In this document: positions 1 through 9,783 of the stretch, piece by piece | Position numbering within the stretch: position 1 is the first letter of the stretch | Layout: the number at the start of each line of letters is the position of its first letter | Assembly (NCBI GenBank): GCA_963702895.1 | Contig: OY969767.1 | Span: forward strand, 1,952,001 to 2,016,000 | Reading direction: 5' to 3' | DNA from: an uncultured Elusimicrobia bacterium | GTDB lineage: Bacteria > Elusimicrobiota > Elusimicrobia > 2-01-FULL-59-12 | DNA: 64,000 nucleotides | Program-made: the position numbers and the translations under genes | Notes under the pieces: generated by a model | Told to the model about the DNA's origin: nothing | What the model saw: the letters and a program-made list of their open reading frames with translations, nothing else | The model's database searches: none

Positions 1-1072
1 GGAGAATGTCCCCAAACTTCTTCTGTCCTTTTTCGACGTCTGTAAGATCCATGATGGAAAGTTCTGCCGGAAGGCTGATGTTCGCCAACGGAGTCTTAAT
101 CTCGTGAGCAAAACCTCCAGCGATTTCGCCCAGCATTTCCGTGCGGGCGCCATGGACCGCCATTTCCAGATAGCGCACGCGTTGATAGGCAAGTGCCGCC
201 TGGTTGGCGATGATGCGAAGCAAAAGAAGGTCTTCTTTTGTGTAGGTCTCCTCCGACATCTTTTCTCCCAGCAAGAGATACCCCAAGACCTCGCCTTGGC
301 TCACCAAGGGAAAAGCAACGGACATGCCAAGATTTGTCATTTCCAGAGTGAAACTCATGCGCCGAGAATGGTCCTCTTCATTATGATGCGGAATTGCGAT
401 GGACAAAAAGTCGTACCTAAAGATGGCATACGTAAAGAGGAAAAACGCGACCCCGGTAAACAGAGAACTAATAGGGAACACAGATATCCCATAATTTGAC
501 AGCAGATCGAGTATGCCTAGAGAATTGGTGCCCAGGGCAGCCAAGACGAGAATCGCTTGATGGCGACGGTGCTTGGGAAGCTCGCGCTTCACAATCAGCG
601 CGAGTAACAAATAGGCCATTCGCCCGACCGTGGTGATGATGAGGACTAAGAAGATCGGATGGAGTCGGCCAGCCTTCGCCGCCAGCCCCCAAGAGAACGC
701 ATGGACACCACTAATGCAGAGAATCCCTGTCCAAATCAGAATCGCTAAAACAGAGGAGGTGAGATAGGAGAGGAAGAGCCACGCTTTATCCTTTTTGACC
801 GAAGCAAACTCGAGGACAAAGTTGTAGAAGATGGAAGGGATAAAGACAATGCCGGTGTAGCCTATGCGGATACCCAGGTCCATCGCCTGGGAAGGCAGTT
901 CAGAAAAAGCAAGGACCCAAATCCCCTGCCATAAACAGATAGCCACGCATAAGGCTCCGTAGAGTCGTTGTGCTCGGTTCTTATTCTTGACGAAAATGGC
1001 GATGCCCAGAAAAAGATAGGTCAAGGAGCTGAGCAAAAATGGAATCGCTTTAAGAGGGATGGAAGGGTCCAT
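1..1072 (-). CDS. 7TM (HisKA_7TM-like) membrane sensor histidine kinase, partial (runs off the left edge); carries only the C-terminal half of a GAF domain
   Basis: Absent from the ORF track; translated by hand. ATG at 1072 overlaps the upstream TGA (TGATG) and the frame is open to base 1: MDPSIPLKAIPFLLSSLTYLFLGIAIF...YAIFRYDFL...GMSVAFPLVSQGEVLGYLLLGEKMSEETYTKEDLLLLRIIANQAALA...GGFAHEIKTPLANI (H-box). Confidence 0.9.
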   Translation of the reverse strand, partial: MDPSIPLKAIPFLLSSLTYLFLGIAIFVKNKNRAQRLYGALCVAICLWQGIWVLAFSELPSQAMDLGIRIGYTGIVFIPSIFYNFVLEFASVKKDKAWLFLSYLTSSVLAILIWTGILCISGVHAFSWGLAAKAGRLHPIFLVLIITTVGRMAYLLLALIVKRELPKHRRHQAILVLAALGTNSLGILDLLSNYGISVFPISSLFTGVAFFLFTYAIFRYDFLSIAIPHHNEEDHSRRMSFTLEMTNLGMSVAFPLVSQGEVLGYLLLGEKMSEETYTKEDLLLLRIIANQAALAYQRVRYLEMAVHGARTEMLGEIAGGFAHEIKTPLANISLPAELSIMDLTDVEKGQKKFGDIL

Positions 1073-2289
1073 CAAGCCGCATCCTCATTTCGATGAGGTC
1101 CCCGCGTATCCAAGGGCTCCCCGATCTCCGCCGGAAAGCCCTGCACAAAGGGTTGCGGGTGATCAACGAAATAATCGGATATCGGGTTATTTTCGGCCAT
1201 CGTGGCCGGCAAGGCAGTGCCACTGGGCTCTGAGATTTTGAAAAATCCAGTCCCGCCCTGCGATCTCAGATAGAGTGCCGCTGATTTGGGATGCAGGGTG
1301 TCGCGCAGTACCCGAATGAGCGAATTCGCCATGGCTTCGGGCGTCGTGTGCGTGATGACTTCGCGCGAAAGTTCATAAAGCTTTTGTTCGCGATCGACGT
1401 ATTCGCGGAAGAACTTGGCATCGACCCACGCCTGGACTCTTTTTCGTAACGGCTGGAATCCTAACGTAATAAGCGCCGCCACCAAGGCAGGCGAAAACAC
1501 AGTCTGCAAACCCGCAATGCCCTGGAAGAGCCGGGCAAAAAGTGTAATCACGACAAGATAAACCGATGTGAGCAGGCCAATGACAACCGAATAAATGATC
1601 GTCTTGCGGACAATGAGCGCGATGTCCAAAAGGTGATGCTTCGTAATGGCGTAGGCCACCATACAAAGGCAGGTGAGCGTGAACACGAAGCCAATCGGAT
1701 AAAGGTCCAGCCCATAATTGACGAGGAAATCCAAGGAAGCGATACCGTAGGCACCCAGCGCATACGCAACCCATTTCGCTTGGTTACGTCGCAACGAGAA
1801 TTCCTTGGCCCGCAATAGCTCTTGAGCCAACAAATATACGGCATGACAAAAGAGCAGCAAGAGAAACGCTAGGAATACAGGATGTAGAGGGCCGGCCTTC
1901 GGATAATACCCCCATGTCCTGAGATACAACCCATTGACAAAGAGCGAATCAATCCATACGGAAGAGCACAGCAGGGCGGCGATGACATAGGCGCCTTGAA
2001 CCTTGGGGCGGTGCTCATGGCGATCTAGGAAGGCAATGATGAAGTGGTAAAAGGTGGCGGGGATGAAAATGATGCCAGAGTAGCCTGCTCGAACGAGAAA
2101 TAACGCCAAGTCCAAACTTCGAATCGAAAATAGGATGGTCCAACACAATTGCCAATAGCCCGTCGAGAAACACCAAAGGGAATAAGGAGCCCAGTCTTTA
2201 CCCATCCGCCGCCGCTGGGTGAGCACATACACCCCCAGCAAGAAAAACGCCAAAGATGTTAGGAACGGCAGGATCGAGTATTTGGACAC
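1072..2289 (-). CDS. 7TM (HisKA_7TM-like) membrane sensor protein with extra TM helices and the N-terminal half of a GAF domain; no kinase domain
   Basis: Many hydrophobic helices paralogous to the downstream kinase (GYSGIIFIP vs GYTGIVFIP; KAGPLHPVF vs KAGRLHPIF; YAITKHHLL vs YAIFRYDFL), followed by FQPLRKRVQAWVDAKFF and a GAF-like start (LYELSREV...SAALYL). Confidence 0.85.
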   Translation of the reverse strand: MSKYSILPFLTSLAFFLLGVYVLTQRRRMGKDWAPYSLWCFSTGYWQLCWTILFSIRSLDLALFLVRAGYSGIIFIPATFYHFIIAFLDRHEHRPKVQGAYVIAALLCSSVWIDSLFVNGLYLRTWGYYPKAGPLHPVFLAFLLLLFCHAVYLLAQELLRAKEFSLRRNQAKWVAYALGAYGIASLDFLVNYGLDLYPIGFVFTLTCLCMVAYAITKHHLLDIALIVRKTIIYSVVIGLLTSVYLVVITLFARLFQGIAGLQTVFSPALVAALITLGFQPLRKRVQAWVDAKFFREYVDREQKLYELSREVITHTTPEAMANSLIRVLRDTLHPKSAALYLRSQGGTGFFKISEPSGTALPATMAENNPISDYFVDHPQPFVQGFPAEIGEPLDTRGPHRNEDAA

Positions 2290-2293
2290 AGAT

Positions 2294-2782
2294 TTAGACG
2301 GCCAGGTCCTTGATCACATTCTTTGCGGCCGCAATCAATTGATCCGGGACTGGGATAAAGCGACCGTTCGCTGTGGCGAAGGCGATCTTTTGTCTGCCCT
2401 CGCTCAGCACTTTCCCCGTCTTATCGTTTATGAAGGTAAATAAAAGCTCAACGCTCGTCTTCTTAAGCTCCCCAATTTTCATCTTGATCAGGATGTCATC
2501 AAAGAGCATGGATTCGTAGTAATAACGCATCGACGCTTCCAGGGTGATCAGTTTGATGCCTGTTTCAAAAAAGGCTTTGTAGTCGGGCATGATGTAACGG
2601 ACAAAGTCTTCCCTAATCATGCCCTGCCAATCAAAATAATTAGCGAAATAAGTGTTTCCAGTCGCATTCGTATCCGTTAGAAAGACGGTCTTCCTAAAGA
2701 GAAATTCTTTCTCGCGACGGTTAAATTGTCTCCTGTCGAATGATATCGTATTGGTTCGACGATCACCCTCACGGTCTTTCAT
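2294..2782 (-). CDS. hot-dog fold (4HBT-like) acyl-ACP/CoA thioesterase
   Basis: DTNATGNTYFANYFDWQGMIRE motif; size and position next to ACP and ketosynthase genes. Confidence 0.85.
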   Translation of the reverse strand: MKDREGDRRTNTISFDRRQFNRREKEFLFRKTVFLTDTNATGNTYFANYFDWQGMIREDFVRYIMPDYKAFFETGIKLITLEASMRYYYESMLFDDILIKMKIGELKKTSVELLFTFINDKTGKVLSEGRQKIAFATANGRFIPVPDQLIAAAKNVIKDLAV

Positions 2783-3045
2783 TTTTCATTCCCCTTCATA
2801 TTGGATTCGATGCACCGGACCACGTCTTCGACTCTCACCAGTTTCATTAATTGTTCATCTGGGATCTGGACTTTGAATTTCTCCTGCAATTCGTGCGTTA
2901 ACTCAAACATGCCAAACGAGTCGACCCCCAACCCTTTGGATAGCTCCGAATCTATTCGAATCTCGGAAATCGGGATTTTCAAGTGTCGCGCAAGAGCTTC
3001 GCGGACCTCTTGTTGTATTGTGATTTCGCTCTTCGTCTCATTCAT
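2779..3045 (-). CDS. acyl carrier protein
   Basis: 88 aa, LGVDSF phosphopantetheine site, QEKFKVQIPDE. Confidence 0.9.
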   Translation of the reverse strand: MNETKSEITIQQEVREALARHLKIPISEIRIDSELSKGLGVDSFGMFELTHELQEKFKVQIPDEQLMKLVRVEDVVRCIESNMKGNEK

Positions 3046-3046
3046 A

Positions 3047-4288
3047 TCATAGTCTCCTTAAAATGAGGCAAGCATTGTTGCTGCCGAACCCGAATGCGTT
3101 AACCATCGCCACCTGGGTCGCCATTTTCCTCGCTGTATTGGGGGTAACGTCTAAGGCGCAGTCCGGATCCACCGTCGAAAAGTTAATCGTTGGAGGAATA
3201 ATCCCTTTGCACAGAGGCAAAAGGCTTGCCAAGACACCAAACGCTCCGGCCGCGCCCACCGTATGCCCTATCATGGATTTGGTGCAACTGAGAGCCAGCT
3301 TTCCCAAGCTGTTTTTGAACACCGTCCGGATGGCAGCGCCTTCGGCTCTATCATTGAGCTGTGTCGCGGTTGCATGAGCATTCACATAATCGACATCACT
3401 CACGTCAAGCTTGGCATCCTCCAGCGCATGCCTCATCACCTCGATAATATCCTTCGCTGAAGGATCGGGTGCCACGTGGTGATACGCGCCACAGTTTGAA
3501 CCGTATCCGAGGATTTCGCCGTAGAGAGGGACCTTCCGCGTTTTCGCGTGATTCCATTCCTCCAAGACCAAGATCGCGGCCCCATCGCCCAGGACCATGC
3601 CATCCCGATTCAAATCAAACGGCCGGCAAGCCGCTGCCGGATTCGAGTTGTTCCGGGATGACATTACGCGCATCGCATCGAAGGCGGCAAAGGTCAATGG
3701 CATCAGCGGCGCCTCAGCCCCTCCGGCCAGAATCATTTTGGCTCTCCCATGCCGAATCATTTCAAAAGCATGTCCTATCGAGTGCAAAGAAGAGGTACAA
3801 GCCGTGGAAATGGTGATATTGGGCCCACGCAATTTCATGGAAATGGCCATATTGGCAGAGACCGAATTCGGCATCGAGTTGGCGACGGCGTTGGGATGAA
3901 CGCCTCGAGGCCCGTTTTCATGCAACAACTCAAAATTCTTTTCATAACACATCATGCCCCCAAGCCCGGATCCCATATAAACGCCAGGGTTTTCTTCCAA
4001 TTCGCGCTCGCTCAAGCGTGAATCTTGGAACGCCATTTTACCAGCCGCCACGCCCAGGTGGGCATAGCGGTCCATGCGATCGGCTTCCTTGGGATCGATA
4101 TAATTCGTGGGCTCAAAGTCTTCAATCACACCGCCCACTTGGCAGCGGGATCCGGAGACATCAAAGGATGTGATGTTCTTGATGCCGGATTTCCCCGCTT
4201 CCAGAGCATTCCAGAATTCCTGAAGACCAATCCCGATGGATGAAACAACACCCAGACCGGAAATGACCACACGATTCAGATTTGTCAT
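3047..4288 (-). CDS. fabF: beta-ketoacyl-ACP synthase II (FabF-like)
   Basis: RVVISGLGVVS, TACTSS (Cys), NAHATAT and KSMIGH (His-His), NAFGFGSNN; catalytic triad intact. Confidence 0.92.
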   Translation of the reverse strand: MTNLNRVVISGLGVVSSIGIGLQEFWNALEAGKSGIKNITSFDVSGSRCQVGGVIEDFEPTNYIDPKEADRMDRYAHLGVAAGKMAFQDSRLSERELEENPGVYMGSGLGGMMCYEKNFELLHENGPRGVHPNAVANSMPNSVSANMAISMKLRGPNITISTACTSSLHSIGHAFEMIRHGRAKMILAGGAEAPLMPLTFAAFDAMRVMSSRNNSNPAAACRPFDLNRDGMVLGDGAAILVLEEWNHAKTRKVPLYGEILGYGSNCGAYHHVAPDPSAKDIIEVMRHALEDAKLDVSDVDYVNAHATATQLNDRAEGAAIRTVFKNSLGKLALSCTKSMIGHTVGAAGAFGVLASLLPLCKGIIPPTINFSTVDPDCALDVTPNTARKMATQVAMVNAFGFGSNNACLILRRL

Positions 4289-4338: not shown

Positions 4339-5709
4339 CTATTTCCTCCCGAACCGATAGGTCAGATTCAGAGCAACAAGATTTGCGTAGTCTTTATAGG
4401 TTCCATCGATATCCGGGCTGGGAACACCGAAGGCAGGGATGCCGCCATCAGGAATGCCGCTGGTCGTTGAACCCACCGAATTATGGATCGAGCGGTTGTG
4501 AAAGAACACCGCCGAATAGGCAGCATCTAATGTCAGATTTTGAGTTAATTGGTATCCCGTCCCAAACGATAGGCCGTAACGCGTCAAATCATTGAATGCC
4601 GGACTGAAATTGACCTCCGGAGTGGCCCAGGGTTCATACCACAAGCCGCTTCTTAATTGCCATCGGTCGGAGACCTTATAATTGGCCCCCGCGGCAACAC
4701 TCCAGACATCGCGCAGATCAAATACTGTGGGATTTCCAGTGTCTAATAGCGCAAGGCGGTTCGGATCGGTTTCCGAGTAACGGACATTGAGATCTGTTCC
4801 TTGCGACCAATTAAACCAGGCTGCATCGGCTTCCAACAGCCATTTTTCATTCGGCTTATAGGCATACCCGAATTGGACATTTTGCGGCAATATCAAGTCC
4901 GTATAGGCCGAGGTGGAATAGTCGCTCCCGCCAAAAAGTGTTTCGACCGTACCATCAAGGCCCCGAATGGTCACATTTCCATTAATTCGCAGATTGATCT
5001 TGCTGTGATAAGTAACCCCGACCGAATGCTTTTCATAAGGCTGAAAGACCATCCCCGCATGATAACCCCAGTCGGTAGCCTGGCCGCGCAGACTGGAGAC
5101 AGCGTCCGGCGCACCCGTCGGCGGAGCAGATAGTCCCAAATTCATAGCATCCACATTCAGATGGCGGTCCATTTGCGCGTTGAACAAATTTACGTATTTA
5201 ATCCCCGCGCCAATCGAGATTTTGGGGTGAACCTGATAGGCCACTGCTGGCATGATTTCAACAATCCCCAGACGCGTATCCGTCGCCGTATAGCGCAACG
5301 GGCTGTTTCCGGGCCAGTGCGTCTCCAGCCCAAAAGGGCTTTGAACGCTTAACCCGGCGCCCAGTTTTCCATCCAAGAAATTCTGCGTCAGCGACAAGTT
5401 GGGAACAGCGATGTTCGTCACTTTGGCTTTGGTGACAGCGCCCGCATCGCTCTCATAGGATCCATGAATATTTTCCCAGTGAGCTCCTACGGTGATCTGG
5501 GTGCCCTTGAGACTCGTCATAGCGGCAGGATTTTGATACACCACCGAAGGGTCCTCATTTTGACCAGCGACTCCCACATATCCCTGCCCGGCAGCCCTTG
5601 CGCTCGGAACTTCATTCCCAATATTGGCTCCTCCCACCGCCTCGCTTAGCGTCGCGGCGAAAATGGACAGCATGATCGCGGCCATGACTTGCAGCGTCTT
5701 CGTTGGCAT
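4339..5709 (-). CDS. fadL: FadL/TodX/OmpP1 family outer-membrane hydrophobic-compound transporter
   Basis: Likely start at 5709 (GAGAGGGG RBS, signal peptide MPTKTLQVMAAIML...); SARAAGQG, DPSVVYQNPAAM, SPFGLETHW motifs; C-terminal LNLTYRF. The ORF-track extension to 5946 is probably not translated. Confidence 0.88.
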   Translation of the reverse strand: MPTKTLQVMAAIMLSIFAATLSEAVGGANIGNEVPSARAAGQGYVGVAGQNEDPSVVYQNPAAMTSLKGTQITVGAHWENIHGSYESDAGAVTKAKVTNIAVPNLSLTQNFLDGKLGAGLSVQSPFGLETHWPGNSPLRYTATDTRLGIVEIMPAVAYQVHPKISIGAGIKYVNLFNAQMDRHLNVDAMNLGLSAPPTGAPDAVSSLRGQATDWGYHAGMVFQPYEKHSVGVTYHSKINLRINGNVTIRGLDGTVETLFGGSDYSTSAYTDLILPQNVQFGYAYKPNEKWLLEADAAWFNWSQGTDLNVRYSETDPNRLALLDTGNPTVFDLRDVWSVAAGANYKVSDRWQLRSGLWYEPWATPEVNFSPAFNDLTRYGLSFGTGYQLTQNLTLDAAYSAVFFHNRSIHNSVGSTTSGIPDGGIPAFGVPSPDIDGTYKDYANLVALNLTYRFGRK

Positions 5710-5860: not shown

Positions 5861-6097
5861 TTAAGTGGCAGTTGGTTCCCCTGTGGTGCTGGTTCCGTTT
5901 GTGCTTGCGATTGCGACTTTTTGGCTACAGATGGCTTCAATGTCATCCCTGCAAAACAGGAGCGCTGAGTTGGAGCCTGTGCCGACGCGCTTCCAGACCT
6001 TGAGCTTTCCTTTGCGGATCCAGGAAATAAGCGTCTGGCGCGAAATTCCCAGGATTTTGCAGGTCTCGGTTCGATCCAATATTTCTTCCGGTTGCAT
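5861..6097 (-). CDS. small excisionase/MerR-like (HTH_17, BldC-like) DNA-binding protein
   Basis: ILDRTETCKILGISRQTLISWIRKGKL; GAGGA RBS; first gene of the operon. Confidence 0.85.
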   Translation of the reverse strand: MQPEEILDRTETCKILGISRQTLISWIRKGKLKVWKRVGTGSNSALLFCRDDIEAICSQKVAIASTNGTSTTGEPTAT

Positions 6098-6383: not shown

Positions 6384-7067
6384 TTATGCATCGAGGGAGT
6401 AGCCGCAGCCGCGGACGGTTCGGATCAGGCTCAGGCCTCGTTTGGCGTCGAGCTTGGCGCGGAGGTTTTTAATGTGGACTTCGATGGTGTTCGTCTGGGA
6501 CTCATGTTCGATCCCGGTGAGGTGCTGGGCCAGGTCTTCCTGGGAGTGGACTTGCTTGGGCCGGCGCATGAGGTATTCTAAAAGGTCAAATTCTTTCTTG
6601 GTCAGGGCGATGGGCTTATTGCCTTTGCGGACCTCCCGCTTGAGCAGGTCCATCTCCAGAGGCCCTACCTTGATGGTGGCGCCTTGGAGGACGGTGCCGC
6701 GGGCGGGGGTCGTCCTTCGTAGGATGGCCCGGATCCGGGCGACAAGCTCCGTGAGCAGAAAGGGTTTGACGATGTAGTCGTCCGCGCCGCTGTTTAAACC
6801 CTGCAGTTTGTCTCTTTCCTGACCCCTGGAGGTGACGAGGAGCACCACACCTTTATAACCACGGCAGCGAAGAGTCTTAAGGACCTCAAACCCGTCCCGT
6901 TTGGGCATGACGACGTCCAGAAGCACCACATCGTACGCCCGCTCCGAGGCCAGATCCACCGCCTCCTGGCCATCCTTGGCCGCATCCACAGCAAAACCCG
7001 CCCGGGTGAGACCTTCCAGGACAAAGGTTCTCAGGTCCGCATCGTCTTCAGCGATCAAGAGCCGCAT
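6384..7067 (-). CDS. OmpR/PhoB family response regulator (orphan in this neighbourhood)
   Basis: LLIAEDD, VLLDVVMP, GADDYIVKPF, winged-helix C-terminus IRTVRGCGY. Confidence 0.93.
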   Translation of the reverse strand: MRLLIAEDDADLRTFVLEGLTRAGFAVDAAKDGQEAVDLASERAYDVVLLDVVMPKRDGFEVLKTLRCRGYKGVVLLVTSRGQERDKLQGLNSGADDYIVKPFLLTELVARIRAILRRTTPARGTVLQGATIKVGPLEMDLLKREVRKGNKPIALTKKEFDLLEYLMRRPKQVHSQEDLAQHLTGIEHESQTNTIEVHIKNLRAKLDAKRGLSLIRTVRGCGYSLDA

Positions 7068-8640: not shown

Positions 8641-9783
8641 GTGATTAAAAGGCTCGCAGACCAACAACTCAGACAAGCCTTGACCCAGTTTCCTGCGGTA
8701 GCGCTGATCGGTCCACGGCAAGTCGGGAAAACCACGCTCGCCAAATCGCTTGGCTCCCGGTATTTTGATCTGGAACAGGAGATCGACCGGCAGCGGCTTG
8801 ATGGCAACTGGACCGAGGTCGCGGGATCCGCGGACTTGGTCATTCTGGATGAAGCACAAAGTGAGCCTCGTCTCTTTCCGCGCCTGCGCGGTGCAATCGA
8901 CGCAGACCGCAAGCGCAAGGGTCGATTTTTACTGCTGGGATCCATCAGCCCCTCTCTGATGCGGAACGTCTCGGAATCCCTGGCGGGGCGTCTGGGTGTA
9001 TGCGAATTGACACCTATTGGAATTCGGGAATTACCGGTGGAAATTGCGCCGGACCACCTCTGGCTTTCGGGAGGCTATCCGGACGGAGGGCTGTTGAACC
9101 CCAAGGACTTCCCTAAATGGCAGGAGGCTTATCTGTTTGCTCTTGCGCACCGCGACCTCCCTCTCTGGGGGCTATCGGCCAAACCGCCCTCCACGGAGCG
9201 ATTGTTTCGCATGCTCTCCCACGCGCACGGTCAGTTGTGGAACGCCTCTCAAATCGGACAAAGCCTTGGTTTGACCTATCACACGGCCCAGTCGTATGCG
9301 GATTACCTTGTTCACAGCTTTCTCATCCGCTTTCTCCCGCCGTTTCATGGGAATCCCCGGAAGCGCCTGCTGAAAAGTCCCAAACTGTACTGGCGGGATT
9401 CCGGCCTTCTTCACGCGCTCTGGGGCGTCAGAAATCTGGAAGACCTTCAGTCTCGGCCCCAAATGGGAGCCAGCTGGGAGGGCTGGGTGATCGAGCAGAT
9501 CCTTATCCACCTGCGGCAGAATGGAATTCATCACGACGCGGCCTTTTTGAGAACAAAAGACGGTGTTGAAGCGGATCTGGTGCTTGACATCGGCCGCCAA
9601 CGCTGGGCGATTGAAATTAAATTTTCCTCGGAGCCGTCGTCGGACGCGTTGAGAACGCTTGAACGCGCGGCCACGATCGCAGGCGCAACGCGACAGGCCA
9701 TCATCTGCCGTAGCCCAGTGGCGACACAGGCCGGTCATCTGCTGATCAGTCCGCTTAAGGATTTTCTTCCTCTCCTTCATTAG
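8641..9783 (+). CDS. AAA_14 family ATPase with DUF4143 C-terminal domain
   Basis: GPRQVGKTT Walker A, ILDEAQ Walker B, ESLAGR, KSPKLYWRDSGL, EADLV...AIEIK. Confidence 0.9.
   Translation: MIKRLADQQLRQALTQFPAVALIGPRQVGKTTLAKSLGSRYFDLEQEIDRQRLDGNWTEVAGSADLVILDEAQSEPRLFPRLRGAIDADRKRKGRFLLLGSISPSLMRNVSESLAGRLGVCELTPIGIRELPVEIAPDHLWLSGGYPDGGLLNPKDFPKWQEAYLFALAHRDLPLWGLSAKPPSTERLFRMLSHAHGQLWNASQIGQSLGLTYHTAQSYADYLVHSFLIRFLPPFHGNPRKRLLKSPKLYWRDSGLLHALWGVRNLEDLQSRPQMGASWEGWVIEQILIHLRQNGIHHDAAFLRTKDGVEADLVLDIGRQRWAIEIKFSSEPSSDALRTLERAATIAGATRQAIICRSPVATQAGHLLISPLKDFLPLLH

Follow-up and report, generated by a model that had tools for sequence, protein, structure and literature searches.

The sensor kinases closest to the gene pair described here are the intact HisKA_7TM-GAF-histidine kinases, a group of uncharacterised proteins (for example one from Nitrospira moscoviensis, locus L055) whose domain set, domain order and gene neighbours are those of genes A and B of an uncultured Elusimicrobia bacterium; these two genes lie at one end of the window, as we call the whole stretch of 64,000 nucleotides that was analysed (GenBank assembly GCA_963702895.1, contig OY969767.1, positions 1,952,001 to 2,016,000 of the forward strand). 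In the intact kinases a single chain holds a whole GAF domain, whereas in A-B the GAF domain is spread over two chains; where Nitrospirota chains have a second seven-transmembrane (7TM) domain, it stands in tandem with the first at the N-terminus, whereas in A-B it is attached to the lid of the GAF domain on a separate polypeptide. HisKA_7TM is named as a sensor domain, with no ligand given in the available part of the source (PMC5847659). A distant named relative of the intact kinases is PrsK (TIGR02916); neither A nor B is PrsK, their scores of 19.9 and 92.6 bits lying below the cut-off of 300 bits.

Kinases divided between genes have been described for Rhodobacter CheA3/CheA4 (PMC3591291) and for Synechocystis Hik36/Hik43 and PilL-N/PilL-C (PMC7656254); the division described falls between phospho-acceptor and catalytic domains, which in CheA3/CheA4 sit on different proteins that bind transiently. 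A-B resembles all three in that a single kinase function arises from two genes whose products are both needed; it differs from CheA3/CheA4 in that B carries both the phospho-acceptor and the catalytic domain, and in that the break, between two membrane proteins, comes midway along a GAF domain. A further likeness is to the staphylococcal agr locus, whose hypervariable region comprises the 3' part of agrB, agrD and the 5' part of agrC (PMC3673130): there too the variable block consists of the signal genes and the sensor part of the receptor, next to a constant kinase, the corresponding boundary in A-B lying between the 7TM domain of A and its tail. A variable block of enzyme and A-7TM is indeed found beside a constant kinase here, with lipid-type enzymes and FadL upstream in place of AgrB and an AgrD peptide. 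The agr locus differs in having a peptide signal and a single-chain receptor without a GAF domain, whereas the slot beside A-B holds unrelated lipid enzymes and the receptor is a separate subunit.

Enzymes for fatty-acid-derived signals are encoded beside polytopic membrane sensor kinases in the Vibrio CqsA/CqsS, Xanthomonas RpfF/RpfC and Ralstonia PhcB/PhcS systems. Enzymes of the aminotransferase, enoyl-CoA hydratase and methyltransferase types all occur in the variable slot of relatives of our locus, whereas the cassette in the window has a ketosynthase, an acyl carrier protein (ACP) and a thioesterase; a CqsA-type aminotransferase beside the sensor is absent from it, and an aminotransferase of CqsA's Pfam family, a match at family level only, lies upstream in 4 of the 21 loci defined below. 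We know of no system in which a GAF domain is completed in trans or in which these enzyme classes are exchanged at one locus, and a literature search, with most subscription papers and supplements outside its reach, found neither a naturally split GAF kinase nor an account of this cassette; the wiring is apparently undescribed, within a known kind of system. We read the locus, with a probability of roughly 0.6, as quorum-sensing-like: A would be a lineage-specific receptor and B a constant kinase, joined via a shared GAF domain, with the 7TM domain of B as an optional input.

One GAF domain on two polypeptides

Gene A (1072..2289, minus strand; 405 residues, GTG start) encodes a membrane receptor without an output domain, whose C-terminal end is the N-terminal half of a GAF domain. 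Its 7TM domain (residues 1-221; 1627..2289) is followed by two extra transmembrane helices and a helical stalk (residues 222-296; 1402..1626), by the GAF N-half, with two helices, the first strands, a short helix and the third strand (residues 297-385; 1135..1401), and by a low-confidence tail (1075..1134), all on the minus strand; the last codons of the tail overlap what is probably the ribosome-binding site of B. Gene B (1..1072, minus strand, and on past the window edge to -598, this portion being taken from the genome sequence; 556 residues) starts with an ATG at 1072 that overlaps the stop codon of A as TGATG. It has a 7TM domain of its own (residues 1-221; 410..1072), the GAF C-half, with a helix, two strands and a C-terminal helix running into the kinase (residues 241-305; 158..352), an H-box with the phospho-accepting His323 (codon at 104..106) and a HATPase_c domain (83.1 bits), again all on the minus strand. 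Both 7TM domains belong to HisKA_7TM (PF16927; 60.8 bits in A and 47.7 bits in B against a Pfam cut-off of 28.6; profile positions 3-222 of 224) and are 31% identical to each other. His323, N447 and the glycine-rich motifs are invariant in all 50 aligned B proteins, features of a class I sensor histidine kinase; the match of B to PF00512 (HisKA) is weak (22.7 bits against a cut-off of 26.9; E = 1e-4).

In the AlphaFold2 model of A, residues 1-219 form seven helices, followed by two more long helices and then by the helices and strands of the GAF half; hydropathy recovers 8 of these 9 transmembrane helices, and in B all 7 segments ahead of the GAF half. With A modelled alone, its last 27 residues mostly have a predicted local distance difference test (pLDDT) value below 50, the last GAF strand and the tail being in this low-confidence part. 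The tail contains T395-R396 (1102-1107), which is invariant across 61 A proteins despite the low confidence of the model there and lies outside the interface named below. Foldseek and VIA searches with the model return seven-helix bundles of the G-protein-coupled receptor (GPCR) type (best Z 17.3, root-mean-square deviation 3.5, 217 residues aligned, 10% identity), which are matches of shape only and barely cover the tail of A; in an ESM Atlas search with A 280-405 the top matches are unnamed (0.92) and GAF clusters reach 0.85 at most, which serves as a lead only.

A whole GAF domain is present neither in A alone nor in B alone: a Pfam scan gives no GAF match in A, and the match in B (PF01590) comprises profile positions 68-132 of 133 only. 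On a profile of 698 positions, built from 36 intact 7TM-GAF-kinase relatives chosen among fetched proteins of 640-790 residues, A spans positions 2-383 and B positions 5-224 and 394-694, the cytoplasmic parts being complementary, with zero overlap. This alignment places the predicted cut in the loop between the third strand and the lid helix, in the strand naming that we take to hold for GAF folds in general. A natural fusion, P0308 (locus L036), was used in place of an artificial fusion of A and B; it gives a full Pfam GAF match (positions 6-132 of 133; 22.5 bits against a cut-off of 22.4) and a model of mean pLDDT 86 in which only the linker is unsure, a hydrophilic stretch of about 58 residues that bridges the split point, and its best Foldseek matches are solved GAF domains (E = 1e-6). 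When A 278-405 and B 218-395 are modelled as a complex, they score 0.69, against 0.00 for the best control, a mark reached by 116 of 157 solved complexes and by 2 of 215 mismatched pairs; the runs share at least 81% of contacts, the pLDDT of the partners is at least 61, and the surest contacts, between B 263-269 and A 334-342, complete the sheet across the chains by strand pairing. Halves of a split gene easily pass this test through their likeness to solved GAF domains; the model thus supports their fit and does not show binding, which is predicted only. The initial annotation had proposed the domain layout of both genes, their TGATG coupling and folding of the GAF domain in trans; the layout and the coupling are found as described, the two GAF halves most likely do fold together in trans, and physical pairing of A and B is, in our judgement, highly probable.

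Relatives of the pair come from Elusimicrobiota records and metagenome loci. Residues 1-330 of B, used as a query, retrieved 80 proteins, of which 50 with 548-571 residues, the window's B included, were aligned; a search with A, limited to proteins of at most 709 residues where other searches could return longer ones, gave 95, of which 60 with 390-445 residues were aligned together with A to make the set of 61. Among all fetched proteins, 85 of the 89 with a strong A-type GAF-N match end within 15 residues after it, and only 3 of the 78 with a strong B-type GAF-C match have the N-half in the same chain, two of the three being the same protein. A lies directly upstream of B in all 21 loci that have a B-type gene and at least 1.1 kb of upstream DNA (the window genome, L008, five of six Elusimicrobiota loci and 14 of 24 metagenome loci). 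Outside this set stand the fusion L036, of which L130 is a second occurrence; L123, with the end of A at a contig edge; L133 and L134, which have the two halves in the right order but with many frameshifts; four loci on contigs that end too soon; L132, which lacks both A and a GAF half; and a weak match that is unrelated. The tail of A occurs in 8 of the 11 genomes of the window's family, split in seven and in a fused frame in the eighth, the three genomes without it being 89-92% complete; outside the family it was found in none among 251 genomes of the phylum Elusimicrobiota, and the split is thus narrow, confined to one Elusimicrobiota family among the genomes searched.

Mean pairwise identity in A is 25% in the 7TM domain, 64% in the extra helices and stalk, 79% in the first part of the GAF half and 50% in its second part; in B it is 44% in the 7TM domain, 84% in the GAF half, 78% in the phospho-acceptor region and 70% in the ATPase. 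All 31 columns that are invariant in the 61 A proteins fall within residues 228-396, and none in the hypervariable 7TM domain. The GAF halves are the best-conserved parts, and A is therefore not a dead fragment. The split is real and conserved, and is neither decay nor misassembly: one downstream paralogue in the window genome is frameshifted, as are a few loci (L115, L133, L134), but the same split point recurs in 21 loci and in 7 of the 11 family genomes, with the eighth fused, and its conservation across independent assemblies, in the most conserved parts of both proteins, leaves next to no probability that it came from decaying tandem paralogues, from a frameshift or from an assembly error. 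Decay specific to one strain was likewise rejected, the split being kept in many relatives. A programmed frameshift or read-through that joins A and B was also considered and rejected: the frame of B is offset from that of A by 2 in 16 loci, by 1 in 3 and by 0 in 2, and a start codon lies between -4 and +12 bases from the stop of A in all 21, so that no conserved read-through or frameshift joins them, the initial annotation having already argued against a frameshift from the window; moreover, the cytoplasmic end of A would be unable to continue into a 7TM domain whose N-terminus is outside.

A switchboard in which many receptors share one kinase found no support. A strong A-type tail occurs just once in each of the 8 matching genomes; G007 has two weaker matches besides, both in intact paralogues, and the four paralogues downstream in the window genome are entirely without GAF.

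The receptor of A and the neighbouring enzyme

An enzyme gene lies between FadL and A in 19 of the 21 loci; L120 is cut off, and L035, the only locus with none, has an A without a 7TM domain. A survey that scanned 53 of 62 candidate frames found in this slot a thioesterase with or without a ketosynthase; an aminotransferase; a LuxD-type acyltransferase with a methyltransferase; a reductase of the shikimate-dehydrogenase fold; an HMG-CoA-reductase-like enzyme; a methyltransferase-hydrolase pair; an enoyl-CoA hydratase with a ligase and a P450; an aldehyde dehydrogenase; and a ketosynthase with an ICMT-type methyltransferase. A-7TM domains cluster by the class of the upstream enzyme, the one in the window being of the thioesterase type. 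For 18 loci with seven enzyme classes of at least two members (the fusion L036 in; L114, L120, L121 and L035 out), the enzyme label changes 8 times on the A-7TM tree (shuffle mean 12.35; 0 of 2000 shuffles as low), but 11 times on the A-tail tree (323 of 2000) and 12 times on the kinase tree (1052 of 2000); for the 13 loci with a B-7TM, it changes 8 times on the B-7TM tree (263 of 2000) and 6 times on the A-7TM tree (0 of 2000). Seven distant rows were excluded from the 7TM tree and from one tree used to place L036. In the 136 pairs with different enzymes the A-7TM domains are at most 35% identical, even at 93% kinase identity, and kinases that are 93% identical bear A-7TM domains 22-23% identical where their enzymes differ. 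In the 17 pairs of the same class, A-7TM identity has a rank correlation of 0.90 with enzyme identity and of 0.05 with kinase identity, the former value being overstated as the pairs are not independent. Together the label tests and identities put the exchange boundary inside A, between the 7TM domain and the tail; judged from these trees, the A-7TM domain appears to travel with the enzyme, not with the kinase.

The same association extends to a second phylum. Of 74 Nitrospirota loci, 58 have an intact 7TM-GAF-kinase, 54 a nearby homologue of the same enzyme classes and 17 FadL, and a joint 7TM tree of both phyla groups by enzyme in three classes: reductase (100/100), HMG-CoA-reductase-like (100/99 for L116) and LuxD (100/95, together with the methyltransferase-hydrolase pair); the thioesterase-linked 7TM domains fall beside those of B (100/99). 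At one Nitrospirota locus (L085:3993-8990), a single frame of 1666 codons contains PilZ, a LuxD-type acyltransferase, a methyltransferase, 7TM, GAF and kinase, a union that may be genuine or may come from the loss of a stop codon.

In the proposed mechanism, A and B would be the two subunits of one sensor histidine kinase, united by the completion of a single GAF domain between the chains: the input stalk and, of the GAF domain, two helices and strands one to three would come from A, and the lid helix, the final two strands and the C-terminal helix that leads into the phospho-accepting domain from B. Class I histidine kinases are dimers, and the stoichiometry is thus probably A2B2. The cassette would run from the HTH protein through FadL, the variable lipid-type enzyme, A and B to a relay of receiver, PAS and kinase. 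The slot enzyme (here ketosynthase, ACP and thioesterase) would make a lineage-specific hydrophobic molecule, and FadL would let this lipid cross the outer membrane; the A-7TM domain, exchanged along with the enzyme, would bind it and move the stalk, and the signal would pass from there through the shared GAF domain to the phospho-acceptor helix of B and probably, as phosphate, to the downstream receiver-PAS-kinase. That the cassette serves a self-made signal in this way we consider probable. Every A-7TM is accompanied by the probable source enzyme of its ligand, which makes the ligand question for HisKA_7TM domains testable, at least nine enzyme sets being available against a near-constant kinase. 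In such wiring, receptor and kinase would be coupled through a fold that two membrane proteins complete together, and a constant kinase that accepts plug-in receptors would lend itself to the construction of lipid biosensors.

The same A-B complex might instead monitor the lipid of the adjacent enzyme within the same cell, as metabolic or envelope feedback with no signalling between cells. The slot enzymes are of lipid-metabolism types, and many carry PilZ, a tie to internal control by cyclic di-GMP (c-di-GMP), as such feedback would have it; but near-identical kinases have unrelated enzyme classes in the same slot, a pattern closer to chemical dialects than to housekeeping, and the FadL channel is constant in the cassette, so that we regard feedback as quite unlikely.

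Several points weigh against the quorum-sensing-like reading of A and B. Co-variation of the enzyme with the adjacent 7TM domain could reflect co-transfer of a linked block and not the matching of ligand and receptor. Grouping by enzyme has exceptions: the four aminotransferase-linked A-7TM domains fall in three places of the tree; L037 joins the other HMG-CoA-reductase-type 7TM domains at modest support (94/85); L114 lies in the reductase-type clade despite different enzymes; L056 lies in the HMG-CoA-reductase-type clade, next to a diiron-type enzyme; and L054 is a further exception in the joint tree. Receptor swapping does not require the split, as the point of exchange falls within A, and in Nitrospirota intact single-chain kinases serve the same job. 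The modelled complex is 1:1 and comprises the cytoplasmic parts only. Finally, the L036 fusion is nested inside the split clade in the best trees, but the approximately unbiased (AU) test does not reject the alternative (p = 0.36), so that it may be a re-fusion or an older state.

The 7TM domain of B

The B-7TM domains form one clade (100/100) with 12 invariant residues, some of them buried and polar or aromatic, and the domain thus appears to be under selection where present. In 5 of the 21 loci (L008, L035, L037, L126 and L127), only the last one or two membrane helices stand ahead of the GAF half; L115 has a frameshift within the domain. Most of the short forms retain the aromatic-basic motif that ends the seventh helix, and they therefore look like deletions from a 7TM ancestor; the kinase tree does not unite them in a single clade (AU p = 8e-5), the module thus having been kept without a second 7TM domain, which on the evidence of this tree would have been lost more than once.

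A counterpart with both inputs in one chain exists in 22 of the 74 Nitrospirota loci, where two 7TM domains stand in tandem at the N-terminus (L040, L042-L046, L048, L049, L052, L057, L064, L066, L070, L074, L075, L077, L080, L083, L097, L099, L105 and L107). In the 13 of these that could be labelled by enzyme, identity within same-enzyme pairs, compared with that in other pairs, is 65.6% against 31.1% for the first 7TM domain, 50.5% against 46.5% for the second and 71.6% against 68.6% for the kinase; the second domain is conserved and scores as B-like.

These patterns bear on the claim of the initial annotation that signalling needs both receptors, as an AND gate. The obligate unit is the tail of A paired with the cytoplasmic part of B, and this part of the claim stands; the requirement for a second receptor is weakened. 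A strict AND gate, in which the output requires each of the two 7TM domains to bind its ligand (that of A, for instance, a private signal and that of B a shared one), would accord with the retention of the B-7TM in 16 of 21 loci (one of them the frameshifted L115), as one clade with 12 invariant residues, and with the 22 Nitrospirota loci in which the first 7TM domain follows the enzyme and the B-like second one does not. It is at odds with the reduction of the domain to an anchor in five loci that are not one clade, four of which retain the A-7TM and the enzyme, and conserved dual inputs do not discriminate AND from OR, ratio or antagonism; a strict AND gate is thus unlikely, and would not be general.

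The converse possibility is that A is an accessory that stabilises the GAF domain or damps the kinase while its 7TM domain drifts, the 7TM domain of B being the true sensor or a mere scaffold. A mean identity of only 25% in the A-7TM, and its absence in L035, would fit such drift; but the domain is intact and in frame in 20 of 21 loci, its identity follows that of the enzyme, across phyla too, and the 7TM domain that is repeatedly lost is that of B, all of which makes an accessory A very improbable.

In the reading of A as receptor and B as constant kinase, the B-7TM would be a dispensable second input that pulls on the GAF lid helix and reads a molecule shared across the group. This molecule is probably fatty-acid-like, the kinship of the domain with the thioesterase-linked receptors hinting at a free fatty acid; where the domain was lost, its last helix would stay as an anchor. 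Only tentatively, as a possibility that we rate below even odds, we suggest that an A2B2 kinase compares a private with a shared lipid signal, two GPCR-shaped 7TM domains on different chains acting, via stalk and lid, on one GAF domain that forms only where the chains meet; it would then be the in-trans version of the single-chain dual-7TM design of Nitrospirota. On this reading it would also belong to a family of lipid-signal dialects, undescribed and spread over several phyla, whose unrelated enzymes are exchanged together with their HisKA_7TM receptors, and would provide the first candidate ligands for HisKA_7TM domains. The pair may have arisen by insertion of a 7TM segment into the cytoplasmic GAF loop: a 7TM domain with its N-terminus outside would not fit in a cytoplasmic loop of one chain, and the split may thus be the price of the added input.

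Two loci show reduced arrangements. L035:1612-3380 is a minimal version with no enzyme gene between FadL and A, in which A consists of the two extra helices and the GAF half, and B begins with its last two helices. At L132:7817-8557 a rearranged B-type kinase starts just ahead of the H-box, with no GAF half and no upstream A, and FadL, HTH and paralogues are inverted beside it.

The cassette and its surroundings

Upstream of A, all on the minus strand, the variable slot of the window holds a 4HBT-like thioesterase (2294..2782), the ACP (2779..3045) and a FabF-like ketoacyl synthase (3047..4288). The constant part follows with the FadL/OmpP1 outer-membrane channel (4339..5709), present in all 12 loci with more than 2.7 kb upstream and also in L035, and a small DNA-binding protein of the HTH_17 family (5861..6097) that recurs ahead of FadL. 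Many of the unrelated slot enzymes carry an N-terminal PilZ domain, some with receiver and PAS domains in addition (L115, L117, L121, L127, L036; in Nitrospirota L046, L054, L066, L075, L086-L088, L111 and L056), which suggests c-di-GMP control of signal synthesis. A lookup of sequencing runs listed no RNA run for the locus and one DNA run, with a small share, that covers only part of the ketosynthase gene.

A receiver-PAS-histidine kinase lies downstream of the cassette in 18 of the 21 loci (in the window genome at L001 420-4333). It is usually followed by a solute-binding-protein-like gene, whose identity of 72-84% where complete is above the conservation expected, and this usually by a GAF-containing protein that resembles a diguanylate cyclase. 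Four further HisKA_7TM kinases are encoded downstream of B on the minus strand (window -7189 to -601; contig 1944812-1951402; L001 4811-11399), with the 7TM domain and two extra helices directly on the kinase and no GAF domain; the first is frameshifted near the sixth helix. Just upstream of the cassette is an OmpR-type response regulator (6384-7067, minus), which was not found beside the cassette in the other loci. Farther upstream, on the plus strand, are an ATPase of 380 residues with AAA_14 and DUF4143 domains (8641-9783) and an open reading frame of 462 residues for a reverse transcriptase (PF00078; 10216-11604), probably of group II intron origin.

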